DNA of 64,000 bases from a virus (lineage: Duplodnaviria; Caudoviricetes), in IMG/VR virus record IMGVR_UViG_3300025413_001239; one strand, given 5' to 3'. The position numbers were made by a program, and so were the translations under genes. Of the stretch, positions 869 to 59,533 are shown piece by piece (position 1 is the first letter of the stretch; every line of letters starts with the position of its first letter). Below the pieces are notes generated by a model. It saw only the letters and a list, made by a program, of their open reading frames with translations, had not been told where the DNA came from and ran no database searches.

Positions 869-1669
869 ATGTTTTACGTTATTCAAGAGAATGTCTTTAG
901 GGAAGAACATTATGATATGTTAATTGATTTAATCAAACGACATAAGTTTGAATATGATATAGTTAAATATCGACCATTTTTAAATGAGATAGTTGCACTT
1001 CCAGTTGAAAATGATGGTGAACAACAAGAAGACGTTATTTATAAAACAGACCGTAAAAATGTTTTTTGTTTCGGTGCTGTTTCAATGGCCAAAGCTGCCA
1101 CAAAGTATGGTTGGAACCCTGGTTCAATGATGAATAAAAACCATGACTATGAAGTATATGGAAAAGCATTTGGATTTGAAAACATGTTAAATGGCGAGGG
1201 TCATGTTATCAATTTTATTGATAAAATACCTATTGATAACTTTTTATTCTTCGCAAGACCAACAAGAGATACGAAGGTTTTTTCAGGACAAATATTTACA
1301 CAAGATTCTTGGAAAGAATACGTTGCTGCTGTTAGACATATCAGTGATGAAACAAAAATTCTTATTTCTCCCTTAAAACAGATTCAACAAGAAGTTAGAT
1401 GCTGGGTTATTGGTGGTAAGATAGTAACTGCAAGTTCATATAAGATAGGTACTCGTGTAGTTTATACCAACTATGATGATGAAACATTCTTTACAGACTT
1501 CGCACAAAAGATGATTGATGTATATCAACCAGCCGAAGCATTCGTTATTGATATTGCCTTGGCTAACGACAAATTGAGTGTCATTGAAATTAATAATATC
1601 AATTCAGCTGGATTTTATGATTGTAATATGGTAAAACTCATAACAGCGTTAGAAAATCATTTTAATTAA
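869..1669 (+). CDS. ATP-grasp domain protein (DUF4343/R2K-like)
   Basis: EVRCWVIGGKIVTAS...FVIDIAL...VIEINNINSAGFY ATP-grasp pattern. Confidence 0.7.
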   Translation: MFYVIQENVFREEHYDMLIDLIKRHKFEYDIVKYRPFLNEIVALPVENDGEQQEDVIYKTDRKNVFCFGAVSMAKAATKYGWNPGSMMNKNHDYEVYGKAFGFENMLNGEGHVINFIDKIPIDNFLFFARPTRDTKVFSGQIFTQDSWKEYVAAVRHISDETKILISPLKQIQQEVRCWVIGGKIVTASSYKIGTRVVYTNYDDETFFTDFAQKMIDVYQPAEAFVIDIALANDKLSVIEINNINSAGFYDCNMVKLITALENHFN

Positions 1670-1691
1670 GCTACTTTCGGGTAGCTTTTTT
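1668..1691 (+). terminator. intrinsic terminator
   Basis: aagctac-tttcgg-gtagctt followed by T-tract. Confidence 0.7.
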
Positions 1692-1724
1692 ATTTTATAG
1701 AAATATTTATATAAAAGTCGTTTA

Positions 1725-4043
1725 ATGAAATTATATAAATTATATTCCCAATTACTTAACGAGGATTTTAAATCACAAACTGTTAATTTTATCAGACAAG
1801 GATTTGAACCAGATATTGTTAAGTCATACATTGATAAATTCAAACACATACGAGATAATAAATACAAAGAAATCTTTGATGAAAATTTAAAAGTATCTGT
1901 ACCTTCAAAAGAAAGGTTAAATATTGATGCTTATAAAAATTTCCATGATTTGGAGGTTGTTGTTGATTATGTATCTGGTAAAAGAGCCGTCAATACCAAT
2001 ATGACAAAAGGCGGTAAAGAAAATATTGAAGTTGATGGAACCCCAATTTATGATGATAAAAATTATGAAGTTTATTATGCTGATACACCTAGAGCTTGTA
2101 TAAAGTATAAGGGTAAATTTCCGTATTCTTGGTGTGTTGCTAGGTCGGATTCAGCGAATATGTTTTACACTTATCGTTTTAAACCCTACGAACCAGCTTT
2201 TTATTTCATTAAGAATAAAAAGGAAACTGATAAGGAATTTAGTCTTTGGAACATGGGTAAGAATGTGTTTCAAGGTAAATTTAGTAACCCTTATCACTTT
2301 TTTGTTATTCAAGTTCCAAAAAATGCAAATATTGATGATAACAAAACACAACAGTATATTGTAACATCAGCAAATAATGATGGTGATAAACAAATGAGTT
2401 GGGATGAAATTATTGCTATAAATCCTAATTTAAATTCAATTAAAGAAGTCTTAGTACCTAAACCACTCAGTGAAGGTGAAAGAAAGAAAATTGAAAGATT
2501 TAAAAATGGTATTAATGATAAGGAATTTGCTAAGTTAACCTATGAAGAAAAAAGAGATTATCTGGATATATACCCAACAATTGGTAGACCAATAACATCA
2601 AAACAATTAAAGGAGTTACCAGATGACCTACTAAATTTATATGTTTCTTTTGGTATTGGTTTAGATGATGAAGGTTTTGAATTTATAAAACCTAAAAAAG
2701 ACATTCTTAAAAGATATGCTCAAATAAGCAAAAGAAAACTTGAAGAATACTTAAAAACAGACAATTATCAGAGAAAACAACTTAAGATGATGTATAGTGA
2801 GTTAATTGTTTTATCCGATGAAGACATTAAGAGTTATTTGGAAAGTTTAAAACCTTATGAGATAAAACAATTTATACGTTTAAATGGTGAAGATAAATTT
2901 GAATTATTAGAAAAGCATTTACCTGATAAATTTGGTGCTCAGTTTCAATCTAATAAACAGCTTATTTTAATGGCCCAGTCTGGTGATGAAGAAGCATTAA
3001 ACAAATTAGCTTCATTAATACCAGAAGATATCGAATTTGATTTTTATGGTAAGTACATAGTATTTGAATTTGACAATACTGATAGTGAAAAGTTAAAAAG
3101 AGAATTAGATAACGATACATTGGATTTTTATAGTAGACTAGATTATAACGAATGGAATAGCAGTTATAATAATGATTATTATTTTGATGATGAATCTTCC
3201 CTAAATGATACTTACGATTTTCATATTGAATCGGTGTTAAAAGATGATGAAACACTAAGAGATGATTTACTTAGAATTGGAATCCAACCAGATTTAGAGT
3301 CTGTTAAGGATTTATTAGTAACATATAAAAAAGATTCATCAATTAAAGAATACATGGAAGAAAAGTATTCAGAAGGTAGAGATAATGCTCAAGAAAAAAC
3401 ATGGGAAAAACTTAGGGATGGTATAAAATCAATAGCTTATATTGATGATTATCGTAATTATAGTGTTTATATTAATGTTGCTTCTTTTGTATTTTACTTG
3501 AACGATAATGAATTTTTAACATCGGATATTGATAATTTTATTACAAAAATGGCATATTTACTTGAAAATATAATGGAGGATAACGACCAAATTAGTTATG
3601 TTGAAAGCATGTATGATGAGGTAAATGAAGGTGGTTATGATTTTACCGTTGGTAATGAAGTAAATGAAAGAGTTAAAAGTGAGATTCAAGATGCCATATA
3701 TGAATTTACATCTCAAGATGATGAAGATGAAACAGATTATGCGAATAATTTAGATTCATCAAAAATTCATAAACTTAAAGGTGAGGTTATTAAATTATTA
3801 AATGATACACTTCGTAATCTAGGTCAATCAGAAACTGCGTCAACAATTGAAAATGACATTGTAAGAATTGATATTGATAGACAAAGATTCCATTTAGATG
3901 GTAAAGTATTTGTTAGTATAACTGACAAACAAAATAATAAAAAACATGATGGTTATGTTTATATAAAAGACTTACCAACTTACTTTAAAAATTATAAATT
4001 GTTTGAAACAATACAAAGAATAAAATCAATAATTAAGTATTAA
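1725..4043 (+). CDS. large hypothetical protein (772 aa), TATTTATA promoter class
   Basis: long ORF with acidic C-terminal half; TATTTATA just upstream. Confidence 0.8.
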   Translation: MKLYKLYSQLLNEDFKSQTVNFIRQGFEPDIVKSYIDKFKHIRDNKYKEIFDENLKVSVPSKERLNIDAYKNFHDLEVVVDYVSGKRAVNTNMTKGGKENIEVDGTPIYDDKNYEVYYADTPRACIKYKGKFPYSWCVARSDSANMFYTYRFKPYEPAFYFIKNKKETDKEFSLWNMGKNVFQGKFSNPYHFFVIQVPKNANIDDNKTQQYIVTSANNDGDKQMSWDEIIAINPNLNSIKEVLVPKPLSEGERKKIERFKNGINDKEFAKLTYEEKRDYLDIYPTIGRPITSKQLKELPDDLLNLYVSFGIGLDDEGFEFIKPKKDILKRYAQISKRKLEEYLKTDNYQRKQLKMMYSELIVLSDEDIKSYLESLKPYEIKQFIRLNGEDKFELLEKHLPDKFGAQFQSNKQLILMAQSGDEEALNKLASLIPEDIEFDFYGKYIVFEFDNTDSEKLKRELDNDTLDFYSRLDYNEWNSSYNNDYYFDDESSLNDTYDFHIESVLKDDETLRDDLLRIGIQPDLESVKDLLVTYKKDSSIKEYMEEKYSEGRDNAQEKTWEKLRDGIKSIAYIDDYRNYSVYINVASFVFYLNDNEFLTSDIDNFITKMAYLLENIMEDNDQISYVESMYDEVNEGGYDFTVGNEVNERVKSEIQDAIYEFTSQDDEDETDYANNLDSSKIHKLKGEVIKLLNDTLRNLGQSETASTIENDIVRIDIDRQRFHLDGKVFVSITDKQNNKKHDGYVYIKDLPTYFKNYKLFETIQRIKSIIKY

Positions 4044-14410: not shown

Positions 14411-16360
14411 ATGATTAAAATAAATGATGTGATAGAAGGAAAAATAAGCGTTAACCATAGTGGTTCCGCTTATTTGGTTAGTGAGCAATCACCAAAGGAT
14501 ATTTATGTTCATAAAAACAATATTAATAAAGCATTTCATTTGGATGTTGTTAAGATTAAAATAGTTAATGGTCGTGGTCGTGAACTTGAAGGTGTCGTTA
14601 CTGAGATAGTTAAAAGATTCAGAGACGAATTTGTTGGTAGTATTCAAATATCAAAAAAACATGCATTCTTTATACCAGATAGTAACAAGATGCCGATAGA
14701 TTTCTTTATACCTCTAACAAAATTAAAAGGTGCTAAAGATGCTCAAAAAGTTGTTGTTAAATTAACATCTTGGAAAGATAACAGTAAAAACCCTAATGGT
14801 GAAGTTATAAAGATTCTAGGTGAAGCTGGTGATAATGAAGTAGAAATTCACTCAATACTCCATGAGTATGATTTACCCTATGACTTTGAACCTGACATTT
14901 TGGCTGAAGCTGAGGCGATATCGAGTGAGATAAGACAGTCTGACATAGATGCTCGTAGAGATATGAGGGATGTACTTACTTTTACAATTGACCCAGTAGA
15001 TGCCAAGGATTTCGATGATGCTTTATCAGTACAATGGGTTAATGGTCAACTTGAAGTTGGTGTTCATATTGCCGATGTATCACATTATTTAAGACCAGAT
15101 ACGGACTTAGATAAAGAAGCTTATCGTAGAGGTACCAGTGTTTACTTAGTTGATAGAGTTGTACCAATGCTTCCAGAAAGGCTTTCTAATGGCTTATGTA
15201 GTCTTAGACCACATGAAGAGAAGTTGTGTTTTTCAGCGATATTTACGCTTGACCAAAATGCAACAATTGTAAATGAATGGTTTGGAAGAACAATTATTAA
15301 TTCTGACCATAGGTTTACATATGAAGGAGCCCAAGAAATAATTGAAGGTAAACCACATTTCTATGAGTCTGATGAACTTGATGTTAATGGTGGATATGTT
15401 AAAACGCTTGGTGGTATGATAAAAGATGCGGTATTAGCTCTTGATAAGTATGCTAAAAAGCTTAGAAAGCAAAGACTTGGTGAAGGTTCAATTACTTTCG
15501 ATAAGCAAGAAATAAGATTCAAATTGGATGAAAACAACAAGCCAGTTGACCTTATATTCAAGATAGCTAAAGACTCAAATCAATTGATTGAAGAATTCAT
15601 GCTTTTAGCGAATAGAAGGGTTGCTTATTTGTTAAATCACAATGATTACCCAGATATCAATCGTGTGCATGAGGAACCAAGTCAAGAAAAGCTTTTAGCA
15701 TTAAAGCAATTTATTAAGCAATTTGGTTATGATATTAAGGTAAATACACCTGAGGAAATAACTTTATCACTTAACAAATTACTTGCTAGTGTTAAGGGTA
15801 AAGCTGAAGAAAACATAGTTTCTAACCTTGTGGTTAGGTCAATGCAGAAAGCGGCTTATTCTACAAAGAACTTAGGTCATTATGGTCTTGGATTTGAAGA
15901 TTACGCTCATTTCACCAGTCCAATTAGAAGATATCCAGACGTAATGGTGCACAGACTTCTAGGACGCTATTTAGAGGCTAAAGCAGCCCCTAAATTAGAT
16001 AAGTTGGAGTCAAGGTGCCAATACTTATCTGAACGTGAAAGAAAGGCTCAAAAAGCTGAAAGAGATAGCATCAAGTATATGCAATGCATATATATGAGTG
16101 AAAGAATTGGTAATGTTTATAAAGGACTTATCACTTCGGTTACTGATTATGGTATGTTTATAACAATTTGTGAAAATAATTGTGAGGTATTGGTAAAATT
16201 AACATCAATCAATGGAACTTGGTTGGTGGATTTAAAAAAATATCAAATAGTTGAATTTGACACTAAAGAAAAAATAAGATTAGGTGATTATGTTCATGTA
16301 GTTATTACTAAAGTTGATGTTGAAAAAAAGAATATTGATGCATCAATTATGCTTCTCTAA
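14411..16360 (+). CDS. rnr: ribonuclease R
   Basis: TIDPVDAKDFDDALS, HFTSPIRRYPD, CSD and S1 domains. Confidence 0.95.
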   Translation: MIKINDVIEGKISVNHSGSAYLVSEQSPKDIYVHKNNINKAFHLDVVKIKIVNGRGRELEGVVTEIVKRFRDEFVGSIQISKKHAFFIPDSNKMPIDFFIPLTKLKGAKDAQKVVVKLTSWKDNSKNPNGEVIKILGEAGDNEVEIHSILHEYDLPYDFEPDILAEAEAISSEIRQSDIDARRDMRDVLTFTIDPVDAKDFDDALSVQWVNGQLEVGVHIADVSHYLRPDTDLDKEAYRRGTSVYLVDRVVPMLPERLSNGLCSLRPHEEKLCFSAIFTLDQNATIVNEWFGRTIINSDHRFTYEGAQEIIEGKPHFYESDELDVNGGYVKTLGGMIKDAVLALDKYAKKLRKQRLGEGSITFDKQEIRFKLDENNKPVDLIFKIAKDSNQLIEEFMLLANRRVAYLLNHNDYPDINRVHEEPSQEKLLALKQFIKQFGYDIKVNTPEEITLSLNKLLASVKGKAEENIVSNLVVRSMQKAAYSTKNLGHYGLGFEDYAHFTSPIRRYPDVMVHRLLGRYLEAKAAPKLDKLESRCQYLSERERKAQKAERDSIKYMQCIYMSERIGNVYKGLITSVTDYGMFITICENNCEVLVKLTSINGTWLVDLKKYQIVEFDTKEKIRLGDYVHVVITKVDVEKKNIDASIMLL

Positions 16361-19324: not shown

Positions 19325-20173
19325 ATGAAAGTATTTAGAATACAAGACAAGATTACGTCTAGAGAAACTGGTACATTTAAGCAATACTTAAATGACATTG
19401 CAAACATTAAGCCATTTACACCTTCTGAAGAAGAAGCATGCGCAAAAATGGCTGCTATGGGTGATAAAGCGGCTATTGACGAGTTGGTAACACGTAATTT
19501 AAGATTTGTAGTAACAGTTGCTAAGCAATACGAAACATCAACCATAAGCCTAGAGGATTTGGTTAATGAGGGTAATATTGGATTAATACTTGCCGCTGAG
19601 AAGTATAATTTAACCATGGGCTTTAAGTTTATCACTTACGGTGTATTCTGGATTAGAAAACTAATCTTGGAATATCTATCCAATCATAGCAAATTAATCA
19701 GGCTACCAACCAATAAAATTTCTAACATTAGCAAATTAACACAAAAGGTTAATGCGTTAGAACAAAGCCTAGGTCGTGAGGTTGATATTACTGAAGTAAA
19801 CTATGCTTCTGATTCAGACCTATCTGATGAAGATATTTTAGAACTTCAAAGAATATCAAATATTAGTTTTGAATCATTTGATTCACCATTAGATGGTGAT
19901 GAAGTTGGTTCTCGTTATGATTTTATTGCTAATACTAACGAAAAAACAACTGACCACATTGTGCTTGATACAGACTTAAAGAATCAAATTAATGATATAT
20001 TAAATATTCTTAAGCCTAGGGATAAAAAGGTTATGATTTCTTTGTTTGGTTTAGATGGTTCAAATCCATTAACCCTAAAAGAAGTTAGTGAAGATGTTGG
20101 GTTAACTAGTGAGATGGTTAGAAAAATTAAGGAAAGCAGTCTTGTTAAACTTAGAAATAAGTTTACGTTATAG
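19325..20173 (+). CDS. sigma70-family RNA polymerase sigma factor (regions 1.2-4)
   Basis: NLRFVVTVAKQY, DLVNEGNIGLILAAEKY, FITYGVFWIR, TLKEVSEDVGLTSEMVRKI. Confidence 0.9.
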   Translation: MKVFRIQDKITSRETGTFKQYLNDIANIKPFTPSEEEACAKMAAMGDKAAIDELVTRNLRFVVTVAKQYETSTISLEDLVNEGNIGLILAAEKYNLTMGFKFITYGVFWIRKLILEYLSNHSKLIRLPTNKISNISKLTQKVNALEQSLGREVDITEVNYASDSDLSDEDILELQRISNISFESFDSPLDGDEVGSRYDFIANTNEKTTDHIVLDTDLKNQINDILNILKPRDKKVMISLFGLDGSNPLTLKEVSEDVGLTSEMVRKIKESSLVKLRNKFTL

Positions 20174-28632: not shown

Positions 28633-28711
28633 TAACGAATTATTTGAGAAAGCCCTTATATTTGCAGCGAAAAAGCATAAGGGTCAAAAAAGATTTGCAA
28701 GTTTAAAATAA
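28622..28711 (+). pseudogene. N-terminal remnant of a RelA/SpoT (Mesh1-like) HD hydrolase
   Basis: MEINNELFEKALIFAAKKHKGQKR then runs into the promoter of tRNA-Phe. Confidence 0.5.
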
Positions 28712-28735
28712 AAGTTGTATATTTGCATTTCTTAT

Positions 28736-31212: not shown

Positions 31213-33030
31213 ATGGGTAGTATTTTGAAAGTCAAGAATTTGACAACATTAGCAGAAGGTGTAATCGTATTCGTAGGATTGGCCGTAATTTTAACAGGTG
31301 TTTATTTCTTTGCGCCAGGTCTTCGAGTTTCGGGGTCAAAAGTCCTAAGTGGATTAAAGATTGGAAGTGAAAACATCGACAACGCTGGGGTAGCGGAGAA
31401 GATTAGTTTACCTTCAAAAGATGTATCAACAAAAGTAACAAGCAAGCCACTTAAGCGTATTGCTGAGTATGGTTGGAACGCAAACGCTGGTATGATTGTA
31501 GCAAATGGTGGTCCTCGTACAACTAAGGGTTCTATTTTAGAAGGTCTTGGTGAAAATATCGAAATCGTTAAGATTGACGGTGTATCAGATTTGCGTAACA
31601 TGCAAGTAAGCTTTGTAGAAGAACTTAATTCAGGTAACGAAAATCCAGTAGGTGAAAAATCAGCGTTTGCTGTATCTATTATGGGTGATGGTGCCGTATT
31701 TTATGCAACCACACTTCAAGCAGAATTGGATAATAAATTTGGTAATGGTAAGTATCATGCACAAATAATTGGTGGTTATGGTTTATCATTTGGTGAGGAT
31801 AAAGTTATCGGTCCAAGAATTTGGAAGGATAATCCTAAATCAATGGAAGGTGCTGTACTTAGTTCTGTAATCGGTGACGGTGACTGGGTTATTGCAATTA
31901 ACTATTGCTTCGCAAACGGTTTAAAGGTTAATACAGATGCAACAACTTACGATGCACACGCCGTAAACTTTTTACCTAGTGAAAATGATGATTACATTAA
32001 TTCTGTTAAGGAACTTATTAAATCTCAAAAAAGTGGTTATACCGTATCATTGAAAGAAGTAGTTGATGGCAAATTGACAGGTAAAACTGTAAATAGAAAA
32101 ATTGACGGTGCTACTACATGGACCCCAGGTGACAAATTGGCATTCGAGAGTCTTTCTGGATTCACTGATGTAGTTTCTACTAGAGATTTCAATAACCAAA
32201 TGTGTGCTGTAATGGTAACCATTAAGGAATATGCGCTTAAGCATGACAAAGAAGTGTCGAACATACTTAAAGCGGCATATGAAGGTGGTAATCAAATCAA
32301 GACAAGTGATGAATGGTTACATGCGGCTTCTGATGCGGTAGCTAAGACATACAACTTTGAAAATGGTAAGTACTGGTACGACATGTTTAAGGGTCAAAAA
32401 GGTACTAAAGAAGGTCTTGATTATAGTGTTGGTGGTAGTAAGGTGTTTAACTATGCTGATGCTTTGCAATACTTTGGTATCTCTGATGGTGTTAATCGTT
32501 ATAAATCAGTATATGACCAAATCTCTAAATACTTAGTTGAGTTAAATCCATGTGATTTCAATAAGACATGTAAATCTGGTCCATTAGCTTATGATGATGC
32601 TGTTAATTTGTACTTCTTGAAGTCTATTAATGATGTTCATACAGGTAAAAAGGATAGTGTTAGTTATGCTGAAAATAAGACAACTGTAATGGCTGATGGT
32701 AACTGGAAGATAAACTTTGCAACTGGTAGTTCAACTATTAGTGAATCATCTTCAAAGGACTTAGAAACAATTTACAACTTATTAATTCAAGCTGAAAATA
32801 CTAAACTTAAGATTATTGGCCACACCGATAATGTAGGAAATCCAGATGCTAATTTGACATTGTCTAAGGGTCGTGCAAATTCAGTAGCACAATACTTGAA
32901 AGATAAAGGGGTTCCATCTGAAAGGTTCCAATTAGTGGATGGTGCTGGTGATACACAACCTGTAGCTGATAATAGCACCGCTGCTGGTAAAAGTAAGAAT
33001 CGCAGGACTGAAATTCAATTATTAAAATAA
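31213..33030 (+). CDS. membrane-anchored substrate-binding-like protein with C-terminal OmpA peptidoglycan-binding domain
   Basis: N-terminal TM; INFATGS, IGHTDNVG, NLTLSKGRANSV, NRRTEI. Confidence 0.85.
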   Translation: MGSILKVKNLTTLAEGVIVFVGLAVILTGVYFFAPGLRVSGSKVLSGLKIGSENIDNAGVAEKISLPSKDVSTKVTSKPLKRIAEYGWNANAGMIVANGGPRTTKGSILEGLGENIEIVKIDGVSDLRNMQVSFVEELNSGNENPVGEKSAFAVSIMGDGAVFYATTLQAELDNKFGNGKYHAQIIGGYGLSFGEDKVIGPRIWKDNPKSMEGAVLSSVIGDGDWVIAINYCFANGLKVNTDATTYDAHAVNFLPSENDDYINSVKELIKSQKSGYTVSLKEVVDGKLTGKTVNRKIDGATTWTPGDKLAFESLSGFTDVVSTRDFNNQMCAVMVTIKEYALKHDKEVSNILKAAYEGGNQIKTSDEWLHAASDAVAKTYNFENGKYWYDMFKGQKGTKEGLDYSVGGSKVFNYADALQYFGISDGVNRYKSVYDQISKYLVELNPCDFNKTCKSGPLAYDDAVNLYFLKSINDVHTGKKDSVSYAENKTTVMADGNWKINFATGSSTISESSSKDLETIYNLLIQAENTKLKIIGHTDNVGNPDANLTLSKGRANSVAQYLKDKGVPSERFQLVDGAGDTQPVADNSTAAGKSKNRRTEIQLLK

Positions 33031-37872: not shown

Positions 37873-37934
37873 AAATTTGTTAGTTTGAAATAACTAACGT
37901 ATATTTGCAGAGTAATTAAAAACAAAGCAAATTT

Positions 37935-38005
37935 GGTTCTATAGCTCAACGGCAGAGCTGGACTCTCTAAAAGTCTTGATGTTGGTTCGATTCCGACTAG
38001 AATCA
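37935..38005 (+). tRNA. amber-suppressor tRNA (anticodon CTA)
   Basis: ggttcta/tagaatc acceptor; agct D-stem; ggact-ctCTAaa-agtct; gttgg-TTCGATT-ccgac; own TATATTTGC promoter. Confidence 0.85.
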
Positions 38006-38053
38006 CACTTTACATTTTTTAACAATTATTGTATATTTATAAAAAAAAGAAAT

Positions 38054-38410
38054 ATGACACATTAGGTATCTAACACTGAGAAATTAAGAGTAATCACAAG
38101 AAGAGACTTGAGTTTAGGGTATCAAGCAACAATGGCATGTCATGCTGCAATAGACTTTCAGCACGAACATATAGCTGAGTCGATACAATGGCACAAGTCA
38201 TCTAATTATTTAGCCATTTTAACTGTTAAAGACGAACAAGAACTTATTGACTTAATGGTCAAAGTTAGTCTTAGAGGTATTAAGTATACCATTTTCCGTG
38301 AACCAGATTTAGAGAATCAAATTACAGCTGTGGCTTTAGAAGCTACAAATGCTAGTAAAAAAGTAACAAGTTCTTTACCATTACTTGGAAAGGAGGTAAG
38401 TTATGTATAA
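38054..38410 (+). CDS. Pth2-like peptidyl-tRNA hydrolase with in-frame TAG at codon 4
   Basis: ATG ACA CAT TAG GTA...KLRVITRRDLSLGYQATMACHAA...FREPDLENQITAVAL...SLPLL. Confidence 0.75.
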
Positions 38411-38753
38411 TTTACTAGAAAACGAAACTTGTAGTTTACAGGGTTGTTTAGCTGATAAAGCTTATGCTATTGTTGATTTATCAACGAAAAGGGTTCATAG
38501 AATAAGTTTCAGCAAATCATTATTAGAGCATATTATAGACACAACCGATAGTCCTTTTGTTGTAAAAGAGGTAACATTTGTTTTAGGTCGAAAATTGTTA
38601 AGTGGTGAAACTAGTTTAACGGGTATATATGCCTTGGTTAAGAGTAAAAATAATTGGACATTACGAATTTCTTTATTTAAAGATATTGCAAACTATCTTT
38701 GTGATTTTGAAACTAGAAGTCTTAGAGAGTGTATAATAACAAAAATTAATTAA
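38403..38753 (+). CDS. hypothetical protein
   Basis: ORF overlapping the Pth stop. Confidence 0.65.
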   Translation: MYNLLENETCSLQGCLADKAYAIVDLSTKRVHRISFSKSLLEHIIDTTDSPFVVKEVTFVLGRKLLSGETSLTGIYALVKSKNNWTLRISLFKDIANYLCDFETRSLRECIITKIN

Positions 38754-38757
38754 TAAA

Positions 38758-38965
38758 GCGCCTTTAGTTTAACTGGATAAAATATCCGAGTCGAATCGGA
38801 AGTGGTGTTGGCTTTTTAAGGTTGTGAAAGCTAGATTGAAACGTCAAAGGGAGGTTGCAACAGTACCGATGATTAGTAAACTAGTTAGTAATGGTAAACG
38901 GGCTAAAAAACGTATTTAGTCTCTTAACTGGTCAAACGGTGGGGGTTCGAATCCTTCAGGGTGCT
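38758..38965 (+). ncRNA. tRNA-Arg-like RNA with about 130-nt insertion in the variable region
   Basis: gcgcctt/agggtgc acceptor, D-arm, tccga/tcgga stem with 6-nt loop, T-arm ggggg-TTCGAAT-ccttc about 140 nt later. Confidence 0.55.
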
Positions 38966-39082
38966 CATTAAATAACAAATTAAAAATAGAAAAATATGAG
39001 ATAGGTAATCAGGGGTCCAACATGACTTTAAATTTTATAAAAAAAACATCAACAATAACAAAAAAAATAAAATTTAAAGAAA

Positions 39083-39382
39083 ATGAGTAAGATTAGTCAC
39101 AACCCAACAACAATGATAAAGAGCAAGTTCTCTAACGAAGTGCATAAATTAATTTTAGGCCCTAACATGGGTACAAAAACACGTGATAGGTGGCGTTTAC
39201 CTAAAAAGAAATTAACTGATGCTGAAAAGCTTGAGTTGTTTGATAAGATAGTGGAAGCGCATAATTCATGCACAGCTGAGTTAACAGCTTATCAATATGA
39301 TAGGCGAGAAAAGAAAAGAATCAAAAAAGCACGTATTGCTCGTGGCTGGGTGCCAAAAGTTAAGACAAAAAAAGTAGCATAA
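39083..39382 (+). CDS. basic hypothetical protein
   Basis: ORF followed by terminator hairpin. Confidence 0.65.
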   Translation: MSKISHNPTTMIKSKFSNEVHKLILGPNMGTKTRDRWRLPKKKLTDAEKLELFDKIVEAHNSCTAELTAYQYDRREKKRIKKARIARGWVPKVKTKKVA

Positions 39383-39471
39383 ATTAAAGGGAGAAGAAAT
39401 TCTCCTTTTTTATTTGGTAGTGTTAAGTAAATACCATATATTTGCATTTTATTAAACATAAAATTATACGC

Positions 39472-41442
39472 ATGAAAAATTTACTTACATTGATTTGCTT
39501 ATTAGTAACATTTCAATTAATCGCACAAGACACAATTAAGTCAAAGACTCTAGAACCAATACAAATTACTTGTGTTAGGGCTGATAAGAAAATCCCAGTA
39601 ACACAAAAAACGCTCTCCGATTCGGCTATTCAAGCGAATTATCAGGGTCAAGAAATACCTATGTTGTTAGGTTCTCAAACATCAATTTACACGAATTGTG
39701 ATGGTGGTCATAACGCTGGTTATAGTTACTTTAGCATCAGGGGTATTGACCAAACAAGAATAAACATAACTCTTAATGGTGTTCCATTGAATGAAGGTGA
39801 AGACATGGCTTGTTATACGTCTAATTATCCAAGTTTTACCAGCGCAATTCAATCTATGCAAATTCAACGTGGTGTGGGTACATCATCTAACGGCGCATCA
39901 TCCTTCGGTGGCTCATTGAACTTTCAAAGCAAGGATGGCCTTATTAAGGGTACTGATATTCAAATAGGTGGTGGTTCATTTAATACATCAAGATTTGACA
40001 TATCCACATCCACAGGTTTATCCAAACACAAATTAGCCTTATTCGCTAATATTGGTGGTATACAAACTGATGGCTTTAGAGATAATTCAGGTTGTAAGGG
40101 TGGTTCCGCTTTTGTGAGTCTTGGTTACTTCGGGAAGTCTAGTATTACAAAACTTAACCTATTAACAGGAATATCACAAAACAAACAAGCTTGGATGGGT
40201 TCAAGTGATTCAGCATTAGCAGCTAATTATCGTGATAACCCAAGAGGTGGTGATAATATGGATAATTTCAATCAAACGAATGTTCAATTGCAGAACATAA
40301 CAATGTTTAATACACGGTTTAAATTAACCAGCACTGCGTTTTATAATTACTTAGATGGTCACTATAATGTGTTTAACTTAAAGGATATACCAGTTAATAA
40401 TTATTTTGCATACGAAAGCCAGTATTCACGATGGATTGGTGCGGTAACTCAATTAGATTATAACTATGGTGATTTTAAGGTTACTTCAAGCCTTTCAGCC
40501 AGTACTTATACGAGGTTCCATAATGGTTATGAGATTTACGATACAACACTTACTGAATATCCCTATACTAATAGTGGTAAAAAGAATGATGCAAATGCAT
40601 TCATAAAGTTTAGTTATGACACTAAAAGAGTCTTGTATTATATCGACTTACAAGAAAGATTTGTTGATTATAAGTACTCTGGTGATACAAGTGTTTATCA
40701 AAGCTGGAAGTTCTTTAACCCAAAGGCTGGTGTTAAGTTCTTCATAAACAAGAGTTTGGATGTGTATTGGAGCGTAGGTTTATCTCATAGAGAACCAACA
40801 CACTCAATAATGCTTAATGGTTGGTTGTACTTAAACTCTTATAATCCGATTACAATAGTTAAGCCTGAGGAAGTAATTGATAATGAAATAGGTGTAAATT
40901 ACACGTCAAGTAAACTAAAATTACAAGCTAATGTTTATGTAATGAAATTTACGAATGAAATGATAGCTGCTGGGCCGATGGGTAATAACAGTCTTCCTAT
41001 TATGATGAATGTTCCTAATAGTCTAAGATATGGCTTCGAATTTGATTGTACTTATAAAGTAAATAAGTCGTTTACTTATGATATTAATTCAACATTATCT
41101 AATGGTCAGTTTAAAGTTGATAGCGGTACGTATAGCTACTTATTTAATCCAAATTTTATGTTTAAGCATTCGATTAACTATACACATAATAAGTTATTTG
41201 TAAGCCTTAATCAAGCATATATTTCAAGAGTTTACATTGATAAGGCTAATCAATTTACTTTGCCAATATCATCTACAATCGGTTTGAATCTTGGATATAC
41301 CTTTGGTCGTTATCAAGTATCAATTCAGGGTAACAATTTAACAGGTGAGAAGACTTATAGCAATGGTTCAGTTACTGGTGTTAGGTATAGAATACCTAAC
41401 GCTTTACAAAATTACTTCATAACCCTTAAAATACACTTATGA
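39472..41442 (+). CDS. TonB-dependent receptor
   Basis: signal peptide, plug motifs (SIRG, RINITLNGVPLN, IQRGVGTSSNG..SFGGSLN), beta-barrel, C-terminal YFITLKIHL. Confidence 0.9.
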   Translation: MKNLLTLICLLVTFQLIAQDTIKSKTLEPIQITCVRADKKIPVTQKTLSDSAIQANYQGQEIPMLLGSQTSIYTNCDGGHNAGYSYFSIRGIDQTRINITLNGVPLNEGEDMACYTSNYPSFTSAIQSMQIQRGVGTSSNGASSFGGSLNFQSKDGLIKGTDIQIGGGSFNTSRFDISTSTGLSKHKLALFANIGGIQTDGFRDNSGCKGGSAFVSLGYFGKSSITKLNLLTGISQNKQAWMGSSDSALAANYRDNPRGGDNMDNFNQTNVQLQNITMFNTRFKLTSTAFYNYLDGHYNVFNLKDIPVNNYFAYESQYSRWIGAVTQLDYNYGDFKVTSSLSASTYTRFHNGYEIYDTTLTEYPYTNSGKKNDANAFIKFSYDTKRVLYYIDLQERFVDYKYSGDTSVYQSWKFFNPKAGVKFFINKSLDVYWSVGLSHREPTHSIMLNGWLYLNSYNPITIVKPEEVIDNEIGVNYTSSKLKLQANVYVMKFTNEMIAAGPMGNNSLPIMMNVPNSLRYGFEFDCTYKVNKSFTYDINSTLSNGQFKVDSGTYSYLFNPNFMFKHSINYTHNKLFVSLNQAYISRVYIDKANQFTLPISSTIGLNLGYTFGRYQVSIQGNNLTGEKTYSNGSVTGVRYRIPNALQNYFITLKIHL

Positions 41443-41981
41443 TAGAGTTTATTGGTGCTTTATTCACGCTTTTATCAGCATATTATACTGTAAAAGAAAA
41501 GGTCATTTGTTGGCCGTTAGCGATAGCATCAACGATTATCTACATATATTTACTATATATTGAGAAATTGTATGGTCAGGTATTTGTCGATATATTAACG
41601 TTATTTCAATGCGCTTACGGTTGGTATTATTGGGATAAAACTGATAATAAGCAGCCTGAAAGACTTAAACCCATTAAGTTTGTTAGAGATATATTTCTTT
41701 TAGTTCTAATATCTAGTATTACAATATACTACATAAGAACATATACTAATAATCCACAACCAGTATCGGATATTACGTCAACATACTTAGCACTTTTAGC
41801 TAATTGGTATTTAGCTAAGAAGTTTATTGATGGGTTTTATGTTTGGGTTATAGCCGATATAATACTAGCGTATATGTTTTATTATCAACATATGTATTGG
41901 TCAATGGGTTTATTTATTATTTTAATAGGGTTCGCCCTTCAAGGTCAATTCGCATGGCAAAAGAGTTTAAAAACGGACTAG
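41439..41981 (+). CDS. pnuC: PnuC-family nicotinamide riboside transporter
   Basis: multi-TM; LYGQ...YGWYYW, ANWYLAKK, WVIAD. Confidence 0.85.
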   Translation: MIEFIGALFTLLSAYYTVKEKVICWPLAIASTIIYIYLLYIEKLYGQVFVDILTLFQCAYGWYYWDKTDNKQPERLKPIKFVRDIFLLVLISSITIYYIRTYTNNPQPVSDITSTYLALLANWYLAKKFIDGFYVWVIADIILAYMFYYQHMYWSMGLFIILIGFALQGQFAWQKSLKTD

Positions 41982-42955
41982 TACTTGGGAAATGTTTTCC
42001 ATTTCACTTAGGACATAAATATCTTATTGATTCAGCAATTAAGCAATGTGATACGGTTCACGTTATGGTTTGTTCACTTAAACGTGAAAATATAGCTGGT
42101 GAATTACGTTATGAATGGGTTAAAGAAACATATATGAATAACCCTAGTGTGAATGTTATTCATTGTGATGATGAAAATCCTCAACATCCACCAGAATGTG
42201 CTAGTGTTGATGAATTTTATAATAAGTATTGGGTACCGACTGTATACAAGCATGTTAAGGAACTGGATGTTGTATTTACTTCTGAGGATTACGGTGATGA
42301 ATTTGCCAGTTACTTAGGTGTTAAGCATGTGCTTGTTGATAAAGCTAGAACAGCTTATCCTGTATCTGGAACTTCGGTTAGAGAGAATCCTTATGCAAAT
42401 TGGGATTTAATACCTGATAATGTTAAAAAATACTTTATTAAAAAGATTGTTATTTTAGGTCCTGAATCTGTTGGTAAATCAACGATGGTTAAAAAGTTGG
42501 CTGAGCATTTGGGTTGTAAGTATATCGATGAGTTCGGTAGGACTTATACTGAATTAACTGGAACTGATAATCTTCAAATATTTGATTTTGAAGCGATAGC
42601 TCATTGGCATAATCATCATATTGAAAAGGCTGAAATTGATAAGTACTTAATAATTGATACAGAAGCGATTACAACTAAGATATTTGCTGAAATGTACTTA
42701 GGTAAACGTGAAAGTGAATCTAAATTCATAGATGAAATCATAAGTGAGCAACATTTCGATTTATACTTAGTGCTAAACGTTGATGTTCCTTGGGTTGATG
42801 ATGGTACAAGAGACTTTCCAGAGGGTCGTGAAGAGCATCTAAACACTATTATCTCTAATTTAGAGGAAAGAGGTTTAGAATACAAGCTTATTAGCGGTGA
42901 TAATTACGATGAAAGATTTGAAAAAGCCTTAGAAGAAGTTAAAAAGTTGGGATGA
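41954..42955 (+). CDS. nadR: NadR-like NMN adenylyltransferase / ribosylnicotinamide kinase
   Basis: GKCFPFHLGH HxGH motif; GPESVGKST Walker A; DVPWVDDGTR. Confidence 0.9.
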   Translation: MAKEFKNGLVLGKCFPFHLGHKYLIDSAIKQCDTVHVMVCSLKRENIAGELRYEWVKETYMNNPSVNVIHCDDENPQHPPECASVDEFYNKYWVPTVYKHVKELDVVFTSEDYGDEFASYLGVKHVLVDKARTAYPVSGTSVRENPYANWDLIPDNVKKYFIKKIVILGPESVGKSTMVKKLAEHLGCKYIDEFGRTYTELTGTDNLQIFDFEAIAHWHNHHIEKAEIDKYLIIDTEAITTKIFAEMYLGKRESESKFIDEIISEQHFDLYLVLNVDVPWVDDGTRDFPEGREEHLNTIISNLEERGLEYKLISGDNYDERFEKALEEVKKLG

Positions 42956-42958
42956 CAT

Positions 42959-44194
42959 TTAAATAACAATTAAATCGTTATTTATTTGATTACGGACATT
43001 ATTGTTCATAATCACACTAGTGTAATCCAGTGGCTTTGTCATTGAAGCAAGGTGATTGTCGTAATATCTTTTCATTATGTTGATAGCTGAGTTTAAATCT
43101 CTATCTATTTCGACATTATCACTTAGTTTAACAGTTCTATCCTTTAACTCAACTTTATCTTTAAATAGCTTACCAGTAAGACTATTCAATTGAGTGGTGT
43201 ATTTTTCATCAATCTTAATTAAATCACATTGTTTATTTTGTGACTTATACTTAAGAAATTCTAAGAACATATTAATATTAGATTCATTAAATGATTTTCT
43301 AATACCCTTTTTATTCTTATTTACTCCTTCTGTTGACATAAGGGTTTTTACTGTTAAATCGCCAACTACAATTGTTTTGTAGTTCATATTCACTAATTTT
43401 TTACTCTGAATATGTAGAGTTTGTTTAATTTGACTATTCTTCTTATTATATAGTTTTCTTTTAACTTTATTTAATTTATTAAAGGATTTACTATTCTTTT
43501 GTTTTTTGCTTAACTTAGACTTAATCTTATTAATCTGTTTACCGAAGTACTGATTAATCCTCTTTGATTTATTTTTAAGAATAACAACGGTACCATTGTT
43601 ATCCACACCAGTACCTAAATTCTTTAGACCTAAATCAATAGCGAGTACTCTTGATTTAATTATTAAATCATCTGAGTAGTTTATTTTATCATCGACAACA
43701 ATATCACAAAGCCACTTATTATTAATAAATTTGACTCTAATTTCTTTAATATTTAATTCAGATAAGTTTGTTAAATGACTTGAATATTTAAAATTAATTT
43801 TATTTATTGAAATTATACTATTTTCTTTGAATATCCAACCATTTAGGTTAAAAACTAATGTATGATACTTTCCGAGTTCTTTTGTCTTTGGTGGTCTAGC
43901 TGTATTATCTTTTTTAATAAGTGTGAAGAAAGATTGGTATGATTGAAATATTTCAGCTGCCACAACTTGTGCTGCTTTTGCATTAAATTGTTTCCAAGAT
44001 TCCTTGGTTGAATATTTCAATGGTGGAATGAGGTTAATTAAATCAAACTTTGAGTATACCTTTTTAGTTGATTCATAGTGTTTTTGCTGAATATCAATAA
44101 GAGTGTTCCAAATATCCATACGAATATCAGACAACTGTTTTAGTTGAGATACCTGTTCTGTTGTTGGGTGTAACCTTATTGAGTATGTTTTCAT
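42959..44194 (-). mobile_element. tnpB: IS200/IS605-type TnpB RNA-guided nuclease without TnpA, rearranged-RuvC type
   Basis: KTYSIRLHPT; AIDLG; VVGDL; IDEKYTTQ; DRDLNSAINI. Confidence 0.85.
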
Positions 44195-44308
44195 TTAATA
44201 TATAATTAACTTTATTCTCTGTTATATATTATAAATATCAGGTAAAAATAAAAAAGACAATAAATTTCGAAAAAAGTTGGGATATTTATAATAAATATCT
44301 TAACAAAT

Positions 44309-46128: not shown

Positions 46129-47271
46129 ATGATAGATAAAATTGGTATTAGATATACGTTTAAGATTTCGGTACCACTAGATGTTTTAAAGATAAAAGAA
46201 GTTTTTACTAAGAATGGTCATCAACTATTTCTAGTTGGTGGTTGTATTCGTGATACCATATTAAATGTAACACCTAAAGATTTTGATTTAGTTACAAATG
46301 TTTCGCCAGAAGAGGTTATTAGAATTTTAAAGCATGAAAAGTTTGTTACAACAATATTAGAAACTGGAAAATCATTTGGTGTTATTAATGTTATAACTAG
46401 CGATAATGAATTTGAAATTGCTACGATGCGCAATGATGTGTTTAGTGATACACCAAATGGGAGGCATCCAGACCGTGTTATCTTTGGTGATATTTTTACT
46501 GATTGTATGCGAAGGGATTATACCATGAATGCGCTTTTTTATGACTTAGATACTAATGAAATAATTGACTTCGTTAATGGTGTTAATGATATTGAAAAAT
46601 CTTTAATTAAGGCGGTTGGGAATCCAGAAGAAAGATTTAAAGAAGATAAATTACGCAAACTTAGGGGCGTTAGGCTGGCGGCCAGATTTGGCTCTGAATT
46701 GGACCCTGAGATTGATGCCGCATTAAAAAGAGATGCCAGTCTGGAAGGTATATCTGGTGAAAGAATCAGAGATGAGTTTATAAAGGGTATCAAATCAGCT
46801 AAGTCAGTTGTTAAATTCTTGGAAATGCTTGATAGGTATCATTTATTTAATTGGATATTTAAGGGCTTACATGTAAATAAAGACTTTATTGAGGATAGAA
46901 ATGTTGTAGTTCTTATTGCTATTTTATTAAAGGGTAACAACATAGGTGTTATAGCTAAGCAATTGAACAATCTTAAGTATTCTGTTGATGAGATTAAATC
47001 AATCACATTCTTATTGAGTTTATTGCATTTAACACCTGAGACAGCAGTTGCTTTAAAGAGACAACAAAAGAACGCTTACACATCAAATCATCAAATAATT
47101 GATTTTGCTAACCGTGAAGGTTTAAATACAAGATTGATACATGCGTTTTTAAATTTTGAGTTGACCGTTACTGGCGAAGAAGTTATGCAAAAGTTCAATT
47201 TGAAGCAAGGCAAAGAGTTAGGTGATATGATAAATAAATTGGAATTGGATAATTTTAAAAAAAGTTTGTAA
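46129..47271 (+). CDS. cca: CCA-adding tRNA nucleotidyltransferase
   Basis: LVGGCIRD, KDFDLVT, RRDYTMNA, EDKLRKLRGVR, SGERIRDE. Confidence 0.9.
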   Translation: MIDKIGIRYTFKISVPLDVLKIKEVFTKNGHQLFLVGGCIRDTILNVTPKDFDLVTNVSPEEVIRILKHEKFVTTILETGKSFGVINVITSDNEFEIATMRNDVFSDTPNGRHPDRVIFGDIFTDCMRRDYTMNALFYDLDTNEIIDFVNGVNDIEKSLIKAVGNPEERFKEDKLRKLRGVRLAARFGSELDPEIDAALKRDASLEGISGERIRDEFIKGIKSAKSVVKFLEMLDRYHLFNWIFKGLHVNKDFIEDRNVVVLIAILLKGNNIGVIAKQLNNLKYSVDEIKSITFLLSLLHLTPETAVALKRQQKNAYTSNHQIIDFANREGLNTRLIHAFLNFELTVTGEEVMQKFNLKQGKELGDMINKLELDNFKKSL

Positions 47272-49206: not shown

Positions 49207-49275
49207 AAAACTTTAAAAAAGATTTGTCTAATTCAAAATAACCACGTATATTTGCACTTCAAATAGCTAATAAAG

Positions 49276-50568
49276 ATGAAGTGTATTAAAACAAGGAAAA
49301 TTCAGTTGTTGCCATTAGGTGATTTTAATGAAACCTACAAATACGTTAATAATTTAAGTTCAGGCTTAGCGTCACTCGGTAATGAAATGATAAGGAGACA
49401 TGTTTTATCATTTTATGAAATGGACGTACTAAAAGATTCAACTCCAGATGCTAAAACTAGAACTAATCTAATGAAGGAAAAATACGGAATGTCACTCCAA
49501 AATATGGGTTATGATGTTTCAAAAAAGTATTCAGCCACAATTCCTTCGAATATTCGCACAACATTTAATCAAAAGGTCTTTAAAAAAATAAAAGACAGTT
49601 ATTTTGGTATTTCAATAAATAAAGAATCTATACCATCATTCAGAAAAGACTCAATGGCAATTCCATTTAGTTATGATAATAATATCAGTTTGAACGAATT
49701 TGGGGTGTATGATTTTAAATTCTTTAATAATGTCAATTTTAAATTAAACTTTGGACGTGATAGGTCTAATAATAAAGTTATCATTGACAGAATTTTATCT
49801 AATGAATATAAGCCATTATCTTCACATATAAAAATTGATAAGAAAAAAATATTCTTAGATTTAACATATTCTTTTGACTCAGATGAAAATGTTAACATAT
49901 CTAAAGATAAAATTGTTGGTGTTGATTTAGGTATAAATAGACCTATGACAATTGCTAGGGAAGATGGTACTTATGCAAAACAAATAGAAATCGGTGGTAA
50001 GATTCAATACTCTAGATTATCAATTCAAAAACAAAGAAGAAGCTTACAAAGTGCTTTAAGGCATTCATCTGGTGGTCATGGTACTGGTAAAAAAATAGCT
50101 AAATTAAAATCATTAAAAGATTATGAACATAATTTCATGAAAACCACTAATGATACACTAAGTCGTGAATTAATAAAATATTGCGTTAATGAAGGTGTTG
50201 GTGTAATTAAATTAGAAAATCTAACTGGTATAACAGAAAATGCTAATAATTTTCTTAAGTCTTGGTCTTATTATCAATTACAACAAATGATTGAGTATAA
50301 AGCTGCTGAATTTGGAATTACAGTATTATATGTTAATCCTAGATATACCTCTCAAACTTGTCCAACTTGTGGCAATATTGATAAAACTCAAAGAGATTCA
50401 AAGGATAAAACAAAATTTGCTTGTTCAAATGAAATTTGTTCTGATATTAATATAAATAAAGATGCTGATATTATTGGTGCCTTTAATATCTCAAAAAGAG
50501 ATGGTGTTATCGCTTCTAAAAAAATATTACAAGAAAAAAGTGATAAAAAGTTGTTAGTTTCAGAATAA
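49276..50568 (+). CDS. cas12f: type V-F Cas12f-like RNA-guided nuclease (430 aa)
   Basis: RuvC D217 (GVDLG), E314 (KLENL), D398 (DADI); CPTC zinc finger; GGHG and W-YYQLQQMIEYKA motifs resemble AsCas12f1; abuts tracr and array. Confidence 0.85.
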   Translation: MKCIKTRKIQLLPLGDFNETYKYVNNLSSGLASLGNEMIRRHVLSFYEMDVLKDSTPDAKTRTNLMKEKYGMSLQNMGYDVSKKYSATIPSNIRTTFNQKVFKKIKDSYFGISINKESIPSFRKDSMAIPFSYDNNISLNEFGVYDFKFFNNVNFKLNFGRDRSNNKVIIDRILSNEYKPLSSHIKIDKKKIFLDLTYSFDSDENVNISKDKIVGVDLGINRPMTIAREDGTYAKQIEIGGKIQYSRLSIQKQRRSLQSALRHSSGGHGTGKKIAKLKSLKDYEHNFMKTTNDTLSRELIKYCVNEGVGVIKLENLTGITENANNFLKSWSYYQLQQMIEYKAAEFGITVLYVNPRYTSQTCPTCGNIDKTQRDSKDKTKFACSNEICSDININKDADIIGAFNISKRDGVIASKKILQEKSDKKLLVSE

Positions 50569-53694: not shown

Positions 53695-54258
53695 ATGATA
53701 CATACAATTGCCCATTTATTAGGTATTAAACTTGAAGGTTCTGAGTGTTCCGCCGAGATTGAAAAGAAAGTTGTTGAACAACTGGAGAAAGTTCCTTACA
53801 TTCAATACCCGACAGCTTTCCATACGGTAGACATCATTGCTACTCGTCAAGGTGAATCTGGTTTTGAATTGCTATTAGGTCGTAAACACAAATCCACTGA
53901 ATGGGTTTTCATTGGTGGTTTTGTTGAACCAAAACAAACAGCTGAAAGTGCTGCCTTGCGTGAATTACACGAAAAAACTAATATCCTTATCGAGAATGAA
54001 TCAAGACTGGTTTATTTAGGTTCTCATTTCATTGATGATGCAAGATACAAGGATTCTTGTCATAAGATTTCAACCAGCCTATTTACAATTCAATTAACCG
54101 ATGAAGAAGCTGCGCAAGCTAAAGGTGGTGACGATATTTCAGAAACCAAATGGCTTAAATTGGGTGAAATTGAAGTTAACTTAAAAGAACATCATAGAGT
54201 TTTGCTTTATAAGTTTTTAATTAGTACTTCAAAATGGCATCATTCACATAATCTTTAA
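53695..54258 (+). CDS. Nudix (ADP-ribose pyrophosphatase-like) domain of NadM-Nudix type
   Basis: QYPTAFHTVDII...LLLGRK...GGFVEP...RELHEKT...AKGGDDISETKW. Confidence 0.75.
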   Translation: MIHTIAHLLGIKLEGSECSAEIEKKVVEQLEKVPYIQYPTAFHTVDIIATRQGESGFELLLGRKHKSTEWVFIGGFVEPKQTAESAALRELHEKTNILIENESRLVYLGSHFIDDARYKDSCHKISTSLFTIQLTDEEAAQAKGGDDISETKWLKLGEIEVNLKEHHRVLLYKFLISTSKWHHSHNL

Positions 54259-54316
54259 AAAAAAGATTTGTTAGTTCCAAATTAATTCGTATATTTGTAT
54301 TCTAAAAAAAAAAATT

Positions 54317-58721: not shown

Positions 58722-59009
58722 ATGTATATAGAACTAACAAAAAGCGGTAATAAACATTTTCTATCTGTTATGGCAGATACTCCTATTGGTGACTTAGAAG
58801 CCACTTGCTTATTTCATGAAGAAATAAACGAGAGTAAGTATAGGGGTGTTTTGAACTTATCTAATGTTATTGACAAAGAAAGTTTTATATTAAAATCACA
58901 AGAGTTCGGAAATGGCAATATCGAAATTGGTTGTTTTAAGGACAATATACCCTTATTTGATGATTTCGAAGGGTTCAAAAAATACTTTGTAAACAAATTT
59001 CATAAGTAA
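58722..59009 (+). CDS. hypothetical protein
   Basis: ORF track. Confidence 0.55.
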   Translation: MYIELTKSGNKHFLSVMADTPIGDLEATCLFHEEINESKYRGVLNLSNVIDKESFILKSQEFGNGNIEIGCFKDNIPLFDDFEGFKKYFVNKFHK

Positions 59010-59533
59010 TGAGTAGTCTATTAAAAGATAAAAGAGCGATAGGTGTAATCATCGCTAGAATGCAGGTTCCGTATTTAACGGAATCACATAAGGCCACTAT
59101 TCAAACAGTATTTGATAGGCACACAAGGGTTGTAATTTTTTTAGGGGTTAACAATGACGGAATGACTGAAAAGAATCCGTTTCCCTTTGATTTCAGAAAG
59201 GAAATGATTAAACAAACGTTTCCTGATAACGACTTCAATATCATACCGCTACCAGATAATCCAGATAGTAATGCTGCTTGGGTTAAGCAATTAGATACGT
59301 TTACTCGTGCGTTTTTAACGCTTGATGAAACTGCGGTATTGTATGGTGGTCGTGATAGCTTTATCCCTTGGTATAAACTGGATAATGGTATCTATGATTG
59401 TGTTGAGTTGGCACCTAATGATTACGATTCTGGTACCGATTTAAGACTATTAGAGTCTATCAAATTACCTAAGTACACACGAGAATCAGCACAAGCTATT
59501 CTTTGGGCTATCAGAGTATCTAGCAAACGCTAG
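59009..59533 (+). CDS. NadM-like NMN adenylyltransferase domain
   Basis: IGVIIARMQVPYLTESH...NPFPFDFRKEMI...LYGGRDSF...SGTDLR. Confidence 0.75.
   Translation: MSSLLKDKRAIGVIIARMQVPYLTESHKATIQTVFDRHTRVVIFLGVNNDGMTEKNPFPFDFRKEMIKQTFPDNDFNIIPLPDNPDSNAAWVKQLDTFTRAFLTLDETAVLYGGRDSFIPWYKLDNGIYDCVELAPNDYDSGTDLRLLESIKLPKYTRESAQAILWAIRVSSKR

Follow-up and report, generated by a model that had tools for sequence, protein, structure and literature searches.

A receptor-PnuC-NadR operon in a jumbo-phage genome as a probable host-derived route for scavenging NAD+ precursors

The closest described system to the locus that is considered here is NARP3 of the Escherichia phage TrudiRoth (Sci Adv, August 2026; PDB 9X6H/9X6F; PMC13464706), which consists of the PnuC-like protein Bas30_87 and the NadR enzyme Bas30_86 that lacks a helix-turn-helix (HTH) domain. 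NARP3 imports nicotinamide riboside (NR), makes NAD+ and thereby rescues phages from Sir2-HerA, and the paper mentions no outer-membrane component (PMC13464706). A 2024 survey found pnuC and nadR in Bacteroidota jumbo phages, again without a receptor (PMC11662467). TonB-dependent receptors of megaphages (Mar_Mega_1, LR745206) were called 'SusC' in 2021 and assigned to carbohydrate uptake (PMC9723777), and an October 2026 preprint described a 22-stranded Lak phage receptor that is transcribed in gut communities, with superinfection exclusion as a possible function of such proteins (bioRxiv 10.64898/2026.10.24.761521). Genes for the transport of nicotinamide mononucleotide (NMN) near such barrels are mentioned in the preprint in passing, but a pathway is not developed (bioRxiv 10.64898/2026.10.24.761521). 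Here we analyse a stretch of 64,000 nucleotides of the IMG/VR virus record IMGVR_UViG_3300025413_001239, in the following called the window, in which a gene for a TonB-dependent outer-membrane transporter (TBDT) is followed by genes for a PnuC-family transporter and a NadR-type enzyme. We consider it likely that these three genes are a host-derived operon for the scavenging of NAD+ precursors that has been kept for a long time in T4-like jumbo phages of Bacteroidota-type hosts. The locus comprises the following features:

39083-39382: gene of 99 aa upstream of the operon
39386..39409, + strand: terminator-like hairpin with T run (10-bp stem, T tail) that closes the preceding 99-aa gene
39413..39444, + strand: Bacteroidota-type promoter with TTTG (-33), a 20-nt spacer and TATATTTG (-7, consensus TAnnTTTG)
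39472..41442, + strand: TBDT of 656 aa with signal peptide, TonB-box-like strand, plug and ~22-strand barrel
41439..41981, + strand: PnuC-family inner-membrane transporter of 180 aa; the start overlaps the receptor stop (ATGA), the stop is TAG
41954..42955, + strand: NadR-type bifunctional enzyme of 333 aa without HTH domain, with N-terminal NMN adenylyltransferase (NMNAT) and C-terminal ribosylnicotinamide kinase (RNK)

With respect to the last two genes the locus resembles NARP3, as a PnuC-family transporter and an RNK-NMNAT NadR without HTH are encoded by adjacent, co-oriented phage genes, and the window NadR matches Bas30_86 (9x6f) at 4.1e-39, besides matches to NadR 8x7f (8.6e-48) and to the Haemophilus influenzae NadR 1lw7 (2.3e-36) in the PDB. 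In contrast to NARP3, the operon opens with a translationally coupled TBDT gene, the carrier is a T4-like jumbo phage, the hosts probably are of the Bacteroidota type and not Enterobacteriaceae, and the cassette appears to come from a bacterial three-gene operon. A previous sequence-only reading had regarded the system as distinct from NARP1 and NARP2, which is true for the PnuC-NadR pair, but such a pair is not undescribed, as it has been published as NARP3 (PMC13464706). NARP2 combines NadV with a bifunctional NMNAT-Nudix protein; the window has separate Nudix and NMNAT-like genes, and no NadV was seen within it. The NR route of H. influenzae likewise employs import by PnuC and trapping by the RNK and NMNAT activities of NadR, but its outer-membrane step relies on the porin OmpP2 and on periplasmic NadN and e(P4), whereas a TonB-dependent transporter would serve here. 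The TonB receptors of huge phages (Mar_Mega_1, LR745206, Lak) belong to the same protein family as the window receptor, but the published readings are carbohydrate uptake or a remodelling of the receptor landscape, whereas the window receptor shows none of the features of SusC and is linked to the salvage of NAD. The component pieces are thus known, and what is added here is the explicit three-step route, its origin in a bacterial operon, and a phage-specific receptor clade.

The three genes overlap, are all encoded on the + strand, and have a single Bacteroidota-type promoter ahead (region 39386-42955), which confirms the coordinates, the overlaps and the one promoter that had been read from the sequence. 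The overlap is 4 nt (ATGA) between receptor and PnuC genes and 28 nt between PnuC and NadR genes. The promoter-like site has the form TTTG-N20-TAtaTTTG and is located 28 nt ahead of the receptor ATG, and a scan of the window detected no further Bacteroidota-type promoter site on the + strand between this site and 45151. As the hairpin closes the 99-aa gene, the operon would be insulated from transcription that starts upstream. In the window as a whole, this promoter pattern occurs at 26 sites where 4.7 are expected, a number that was reached in 0/100 shuffles, and nearly all of these sites precede + strand genes. An extended consensus of the -33/-7 type, TTTGnnaGTTTnAAAtaA...cGTATATTTG, can be recognized for example at 28694-28725, 37876-37907, 49223-49254 and 54267-54297.

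In one point the earlier annotation needs to be corrected: the 666 aa that it gave for the receptor are counted from TTG 39442, but the most likely start is ATG 39472, which results in a protein of 656 aa with a signal peptide. For NadR, the most likely start is ATG 41954, resulting in 333 aa with the N-terminus MAKEFKNGLVLGKCFPFHLGH; a start at TTG 41843 would give 370 aa. Several phage relatives contain 0.5-1.6 kb of extra DNA between pnuC and nadR (L001, 10327-10967, with two small open reading frames (ORFs); L094, 9659-10602; L109, L111, L113 and L115), and the trio genes are intact in these cases.

Profile and structure matches bear out the assigned identities of all three proteins. The receptor has a Plug domain (PF07715, 9e-11), and its family profile matches PqqU/YncD, the Escherichia coli transporter for pyrroloquinoline quinone (PQQ), across nearly the full length (E 9e-12). 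In agreement with this, PqqU (9c4o) is the best Foldseek match of an AlphaFold2 model of the receptor, with a TM score of 0.83 over 668 columns. This model has an overall confidence (pLDDT) of 77, with values of 80-92 in the barrel, for which DSSP gives ~22 strands. PqqU (PDB 9c4o, 6v81) is likewise a compact TBDT of ~650-700 aa, but the sequence identity is only ~15%, and gene context and presumed ligand differ. The signal peptide (MKNLL...IAQ-D) is followed by the strand-like segment LEPIQITCVRAD, which lies in a region of low model pLDDT, and this TonB-box-like motif is kept in phage and bacterial receptor copies, which argues for a working transporter and not for a relic or a mere surface decoy. 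An assignment to SusC/RagA was considered and rejected: such proteins have ~1000 aa with an N-terminal extension instead of 656 aa, downstream of the receptor gene there is pnuC and no SusD gene, and the NCBIfam matches of the receptor include no SusC/RagA model.

PnuC is recognized by PF04973 (7.6e-33) and exceeds the cut-off of the PnuC equivalog model TIGR01528 (62.2 bits, cut-off 42.45). A single-sequence phmmer search of PnuC against the PDB gave no match; a family profile of 17 sequences matches residues 45-231 of the Neisseria mucosa PnuC 4QTN at 1.4e-21. NadR is matched by TIGR01526 (5.5e-70) and by NF005988 (201.8 bits, cut-off 201), the latter from model position 62 on, i.e. past the HTH. 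It contains the NMNAT motifs GKCFPFHLGH (HxGH) and SGTSVRENP (SGTxxR) as well as the Walker A motif GPESVGKST in the RNK part.

The trio is not restricted to the window. Bacterial loci with the closest receptor homologues were collected (n=80; 30-40% identity; mostly Bacteroidota), and neighbours were counted within 6 kb. Receptor, PnuC and NadR are colinear in 34 of these loci, PnuC or NadR/RNK is found in the neighbourhood in 56, and in Gemmatimonadota loci the receptor is accompanied by PnuC and an RNK-only protein. On the viral side, the colinear trio is present in 19 of the 29 IMG/VR contigs that carry the receptor family (contigs up to 483 kb), and also in the three deposited huge phages LR745206 (634 kb), LR756502 (642 kb) and LR756501 (735 kb). 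As the same gene order recurs in all these bacterial loci, viral contigs and huge phages, chance does not explain the arrangement. The receptor also occurs in Lak phages, where an RNK-like gene and pnuC are found ~6 kb downstream in non-adjacent position; the window receptor is 40% identical to the LR745206 homologue and 26-28% identical to those of Lak phages. In the literature, we found no description of a bacterial TBDT-PnuC-NadR operon. The bacterial TBDT-PnuC-NadR loci of Bacteroidota and the TBDT/PnuC/RNK loci of Gemmatimonadota comprise the same three families as the window, but the phage copies differ from them in that most phage receptors form a clade of their own, the genes have phage-like GC content at third codon positions (GC3), and the cassette has a conserved position in phage genomes.

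What is the substrate of this receptor? As the ligand is known for no member of the family, the argument needs to be based on gene linkage, and and because the family is linked to PnuC and NadR in bacteria and viruses, without riboswitch, thiamine kinase or SusD, an outer-membrane gate for NR, or for a close relative such as NMN, that feeds PnuC and NadR would be the most economical reading. The sequence-only reading had named thiamine as an alternative, and there are reasons to consider this, as carriers for thiamine (PnuT) and for riboflavin (PnuX) belong to the PnuC family, and in Bacteroides PnuT is paired with a TonB receptor. The uptake of thiamine or another vitamin in the manner of this Bacteroidetes OMthi-PnuT type is in line with the fact that PF04973 does not resolve the PnuC, PnuT and PnuX subfamilies. 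However, the PnuC of the window exceeds the cut-off of the nicotinamide-riboside equivalog TIGR01528, and the coupled enzyme is NadR or RNK, and never thiamine pyrophosphokinase, in at least 50 loci. A thiamine pyrophosphate (TPP) riboswitch was found neither in the window at gathering score nor at E<=5 in 38600-39600, and neither this receptor nor its homologues at 10 bacterial loci are preceded by a TPP or other riboswitch. Neither a thiamine kinase nor SusD accompanies the receptor. With the riboswitch missing and the wrong partner enzyme, we rejected the thiamine reading, which is highly improbable.

A different possibility is that the receptor imports a larger precursor, NMN or NAD+, from which periplasmic nucleotidases of the host would generate the NR for PnuC. 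TBDTs typically handle substrates that are too large or too scarce for porins, and NAD+ has 663 Da; in Haemophilus, NAD is indeed converted to NR in the periplasm before PnuC takes it up (NadN/e(P4)-PnuC-NadR route). On the other hand, no nucleotidase gene is present beside the cassette in the window, and TBDTs for small cofactors do exist, as PqqU, the best structural match, scavenges PQQ of only 330 Da. We regard such a precursor route as rather unlikely, and NR as the more plausible ligand.

The receptor phylogeny, which the sequence-only reading had named as a check, agrees with a bacterial origin. In a maximum-likelihood tree, a clade with a support of 100 unites 16 phage receptors, among them that of the window and those of both complete 360-kb phages. 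Operon-linked receptors of Bacteroidota and Gemmatimonadota are the sister group of this main clade. The receptor of the 735-kb phage falls into a second phage clade, and those of the Lak phages stand apart. The tree topology therefore points to a few captures that were followed by long vertical descent. The similarities of the bacterial loci to the three phage proteins correlate with each other (rho 0.51-0.64, a range inflated by shared ancestry), which fits a putative capture of the genes as a block. The best 'bacterial' match (L003, JAJFLM010000305.1, binned as a Deltaproteobacteria metagenome-assembled genome; cassette at 263-3743) nests in the phage clade beside the complete 362-kb phage. 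It has a GC content of 0.32 and has only the cassette in common with the phage loci, as the flanking genes are not shared; it represents either a contig of a phage that was mis-binned or a transfer from phage to bacterium.

All three genes are under purifying selection in the lineage of the window, as dN/dS in comparison with close phage relatives, for which dS is near saturation, is lowest in the receptor (0.075), followed by NadR (0.11) and PnuC (0.19-0.30). This is relevant for the idea that the receptor mainly remodels the cell surface, as superinfection exclusion factor or decoy, with the adjacent pnuC-nadR being only a legacy of the captured operon. TBDTs commonly serve as phage receptors, and surface remodelling is the interpretation that has been given for the beta-barrel proteins of huge phages (bioRxiv 10.64898/2026.10.24.761521). 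Yet the low dN/dS value of the receptor applies to its full length, the TonB-box-like motif and the plug are conserved with invariant columns, the receptor gene is still translationally coupled to pnuC, and the trio is intact in phage copies as divergent as 39% identity. A role mainly in surface remodelling is therefore improbable, although somewhat less so than thiamine uptake.

That the DNA is that of a phage, as the earlier reading had it, is well supported: the window contains many PHROG matches, 11 tRNA genes, homing endonucleases and an endolysin gene, and it shares synteny with complete jumbo phages. The receptor protein is on record from a 343 kb contig, with relatives of 83-90% identity on contigs of 355-379 kb. 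Viral contigs of IMG/VR and metagenome contigs of lake type share with the window a gene order that extends well past the cassette and comprises the ABC transporter, PTH2, the cassette and the CCA-adding enzyme. One syntenic relative, G003 (362 kb), has terminal repeats, a completeness rating of 100% and a T4-type Gp23 capsid gene (3e-62); Terminase_6N was not found in two fragmentary IMG/VR records. The trio genes have a GC3 of 0.22-0.28, which is that of the other phage genes. Contamination or misassembly could be rejected, because this GC3 is phage-like and several phage contigs are syntenic in the flanks. The cassette has long been resident in this lineage of T4-like jumbo phages, which is of freshwater type and has complete relatives of ~360 kb. 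As the promoter pattern is enriched (26 versus 4.7) and as the bacterial relatives of the receptor are mostly Bacteroidota, the host probably belongs to the Bacteroidota.

Mechanistically, the system could function as follows. Early in infection, one transcript would be made from the Bacteroidota-type promoter. The receptor would be exported by the Sec system and inserted into the outer membrane of the host, where it would be energised by the host TonB-ExbBD and capture a pyridine nucleoside, most likely NR, at low external concentrations. PnuC would then move NR across the inner membrane, and NadR would trap it by RNK phosphorylation to NMN and by subsequent NMNAT adenylation to NAD+. The infected cell would thus have a larger NAD+ pool, which would act against defences that deplete NAD+, an effect demonstrated for NARP3 with its two genes, and feed NAD+ users of the phage. 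The sequence-only reading had called this a complete scavenging route. All three proteins are indeed encoded, but the route is not self-sufficient, as there is no TonB or ExbB gene in two complete cassette-carrying phages, and the receptor thus presumably must use the energising complex of the host. In LR756501.1 (735 kb), the largest deposited phage, one gene product contains a TonB C-terminal domain (4.9e-23), and a gene of the nicotinate phosphoribosyltransferase (NAPRTase) family is found ~2 kb from the cassette (entries 470226-470459 (-) and 430260-430955 (-)).

Several points weigh against such a route or against its use in counter-defence. NR (255 Da) is small enough for porins, so that a dedicated receptor is not obviously needed, a measured substrate exists for no member of the receptor family, and the confidence of the modelled plug is low. 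The barrel would have to be synthesized and inserted into the outer membrane in the course of a single infection cycle. As NAD+-depleting defences release nicotinamide and ADP-ribose and not NR, a rescue would depend on external NR, which may be scarce in lake water. It can be argued that a high-affinity receptor is sensible exactly where NR is scarce, but this is an argument and not evidence. Finally, the window encodes two further proteins of NAD metabolism, so that the phage evidently has other routes to NAD, and the cassette may then contribute to general supply rather than to counter-defence:

53695-54258, + strand: NadM-type Nudix protein, best PDB match NMNAT/Nudix 2qjo (4e-6)
59009-59533, + strand: archaeal-type NMNAT-like protein (1f9a, 2e-4; NCBIfam NMNAT, 1e-7)

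Judged from their homologies, these two genes appear to represent a second, split NAD salvage module. A serious alternative to a role dedicated to counter-defence is that the same pathway gives general metabolic support, in that it would keep NAD+ available throughout the long infection by a jumbo phage and for phage enzymes that consume it, such as ADP-ribosyltransferases and ligases. In its favor, Bacteroidota jumbo phages commonly carry NAD synthesis genes, with pnuC in 68 of 174 'NAD-jumbo phages' (PMC11662467), the window has the additional Nudix and NMNAT-like genes, and NAPRTase-family genes occur in related huge phages, in LR756501 only ~2 kb from the cassette. Against it stands the demonstrated rescue of phages from Sir2-HerA by NARP3 (PMC13464706). 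The two roles are compatible and are not separated by the present evidence; general supply as the actual benefit is possible, but we do not favor it over the scavenging route that serves counter-defence.

On this basis, we tentatively propose, as an idea that is nearly but not quite as probable as its opposite, that the receptor family represents the first outer-membrane transporter that is dedicated to a precursor of NAD+ (NR/NMN), and that the diverged copies, which jumbo phages would have carried for a long time, permit a NARP3-type rebuilding of NAD+ at the trace levels found in waters and guts, a counter-defence that would start at the outer membrane with the TonB motor of the host. This would assign a concrete ligand class to a TBDT family with a wide distribution among Bacteroidota and Gemmatimonadota. 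The TonB receptors of the largest known phages (634-735 kb, Lak), earlier viewed as SusC or in terms of surface remodelling, would be reinterpreted, and the NARP3 concept, with uptake at the outer membrane as an additional step, would be widened from enterobacterial to jumbo phages. If true, phages would need vitamin B3 ribosides from outside the cell as well as host TonB for their NAD+ salvage, and the success of the phages would be tied to the availability of a micronutrient in lakes and guts.

Besides the operon, the window holds other genes of cell-like character, as well as a gene for a TnpB-like protein just downstream of nadR:

14411-16360: RNase R
19325-20173: sigma-70-type factor
31213-33030: OmpA-family protein of 605 aa
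34359-35974: ABC transporter permease and ATPase (nitrate/taurine/sulfonate-like permease)
38108-38410: PTH2 peptidyl-tRNA hydrolase
42959..44194, - strand: TnpB-like gene (OrfB_IS605 and Cas12f1-like TNB, by Pfam), 4 nt past the nadR stop and outside the system
46129-47271: CCA-adding enzyme

The TnpB-like gene 42959-44194 is a recent mobile insertion, as the stretch ~42970-44307 is absent from the syntenic relatives L001 and L095 and at least partly present in L094. A second TnpB-like gene is found at 49276-50568 (+), 5 kb downstream of the first. One of the tRNAs, at 37935-38006 (+), has the anticodon CTA that reads TAG, as recognized by ARAGORN and Rfam. A recoding of TAG was considered and rejected for the window: readthrough adds little ORF length, stop-codon statistics show no sign of it, and the TAG stop of PnuC coincides with the end of its homologues. 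At 38760-38970 (+), 5' and 3' ends that resemble those of a tRNA (acceptor stem, GGTTCGAATCC T-arm) are located ~130 nt apart in an element that neither ARAGORN nor Rfam calls, and which may be an interrupted or unusual tRNA.

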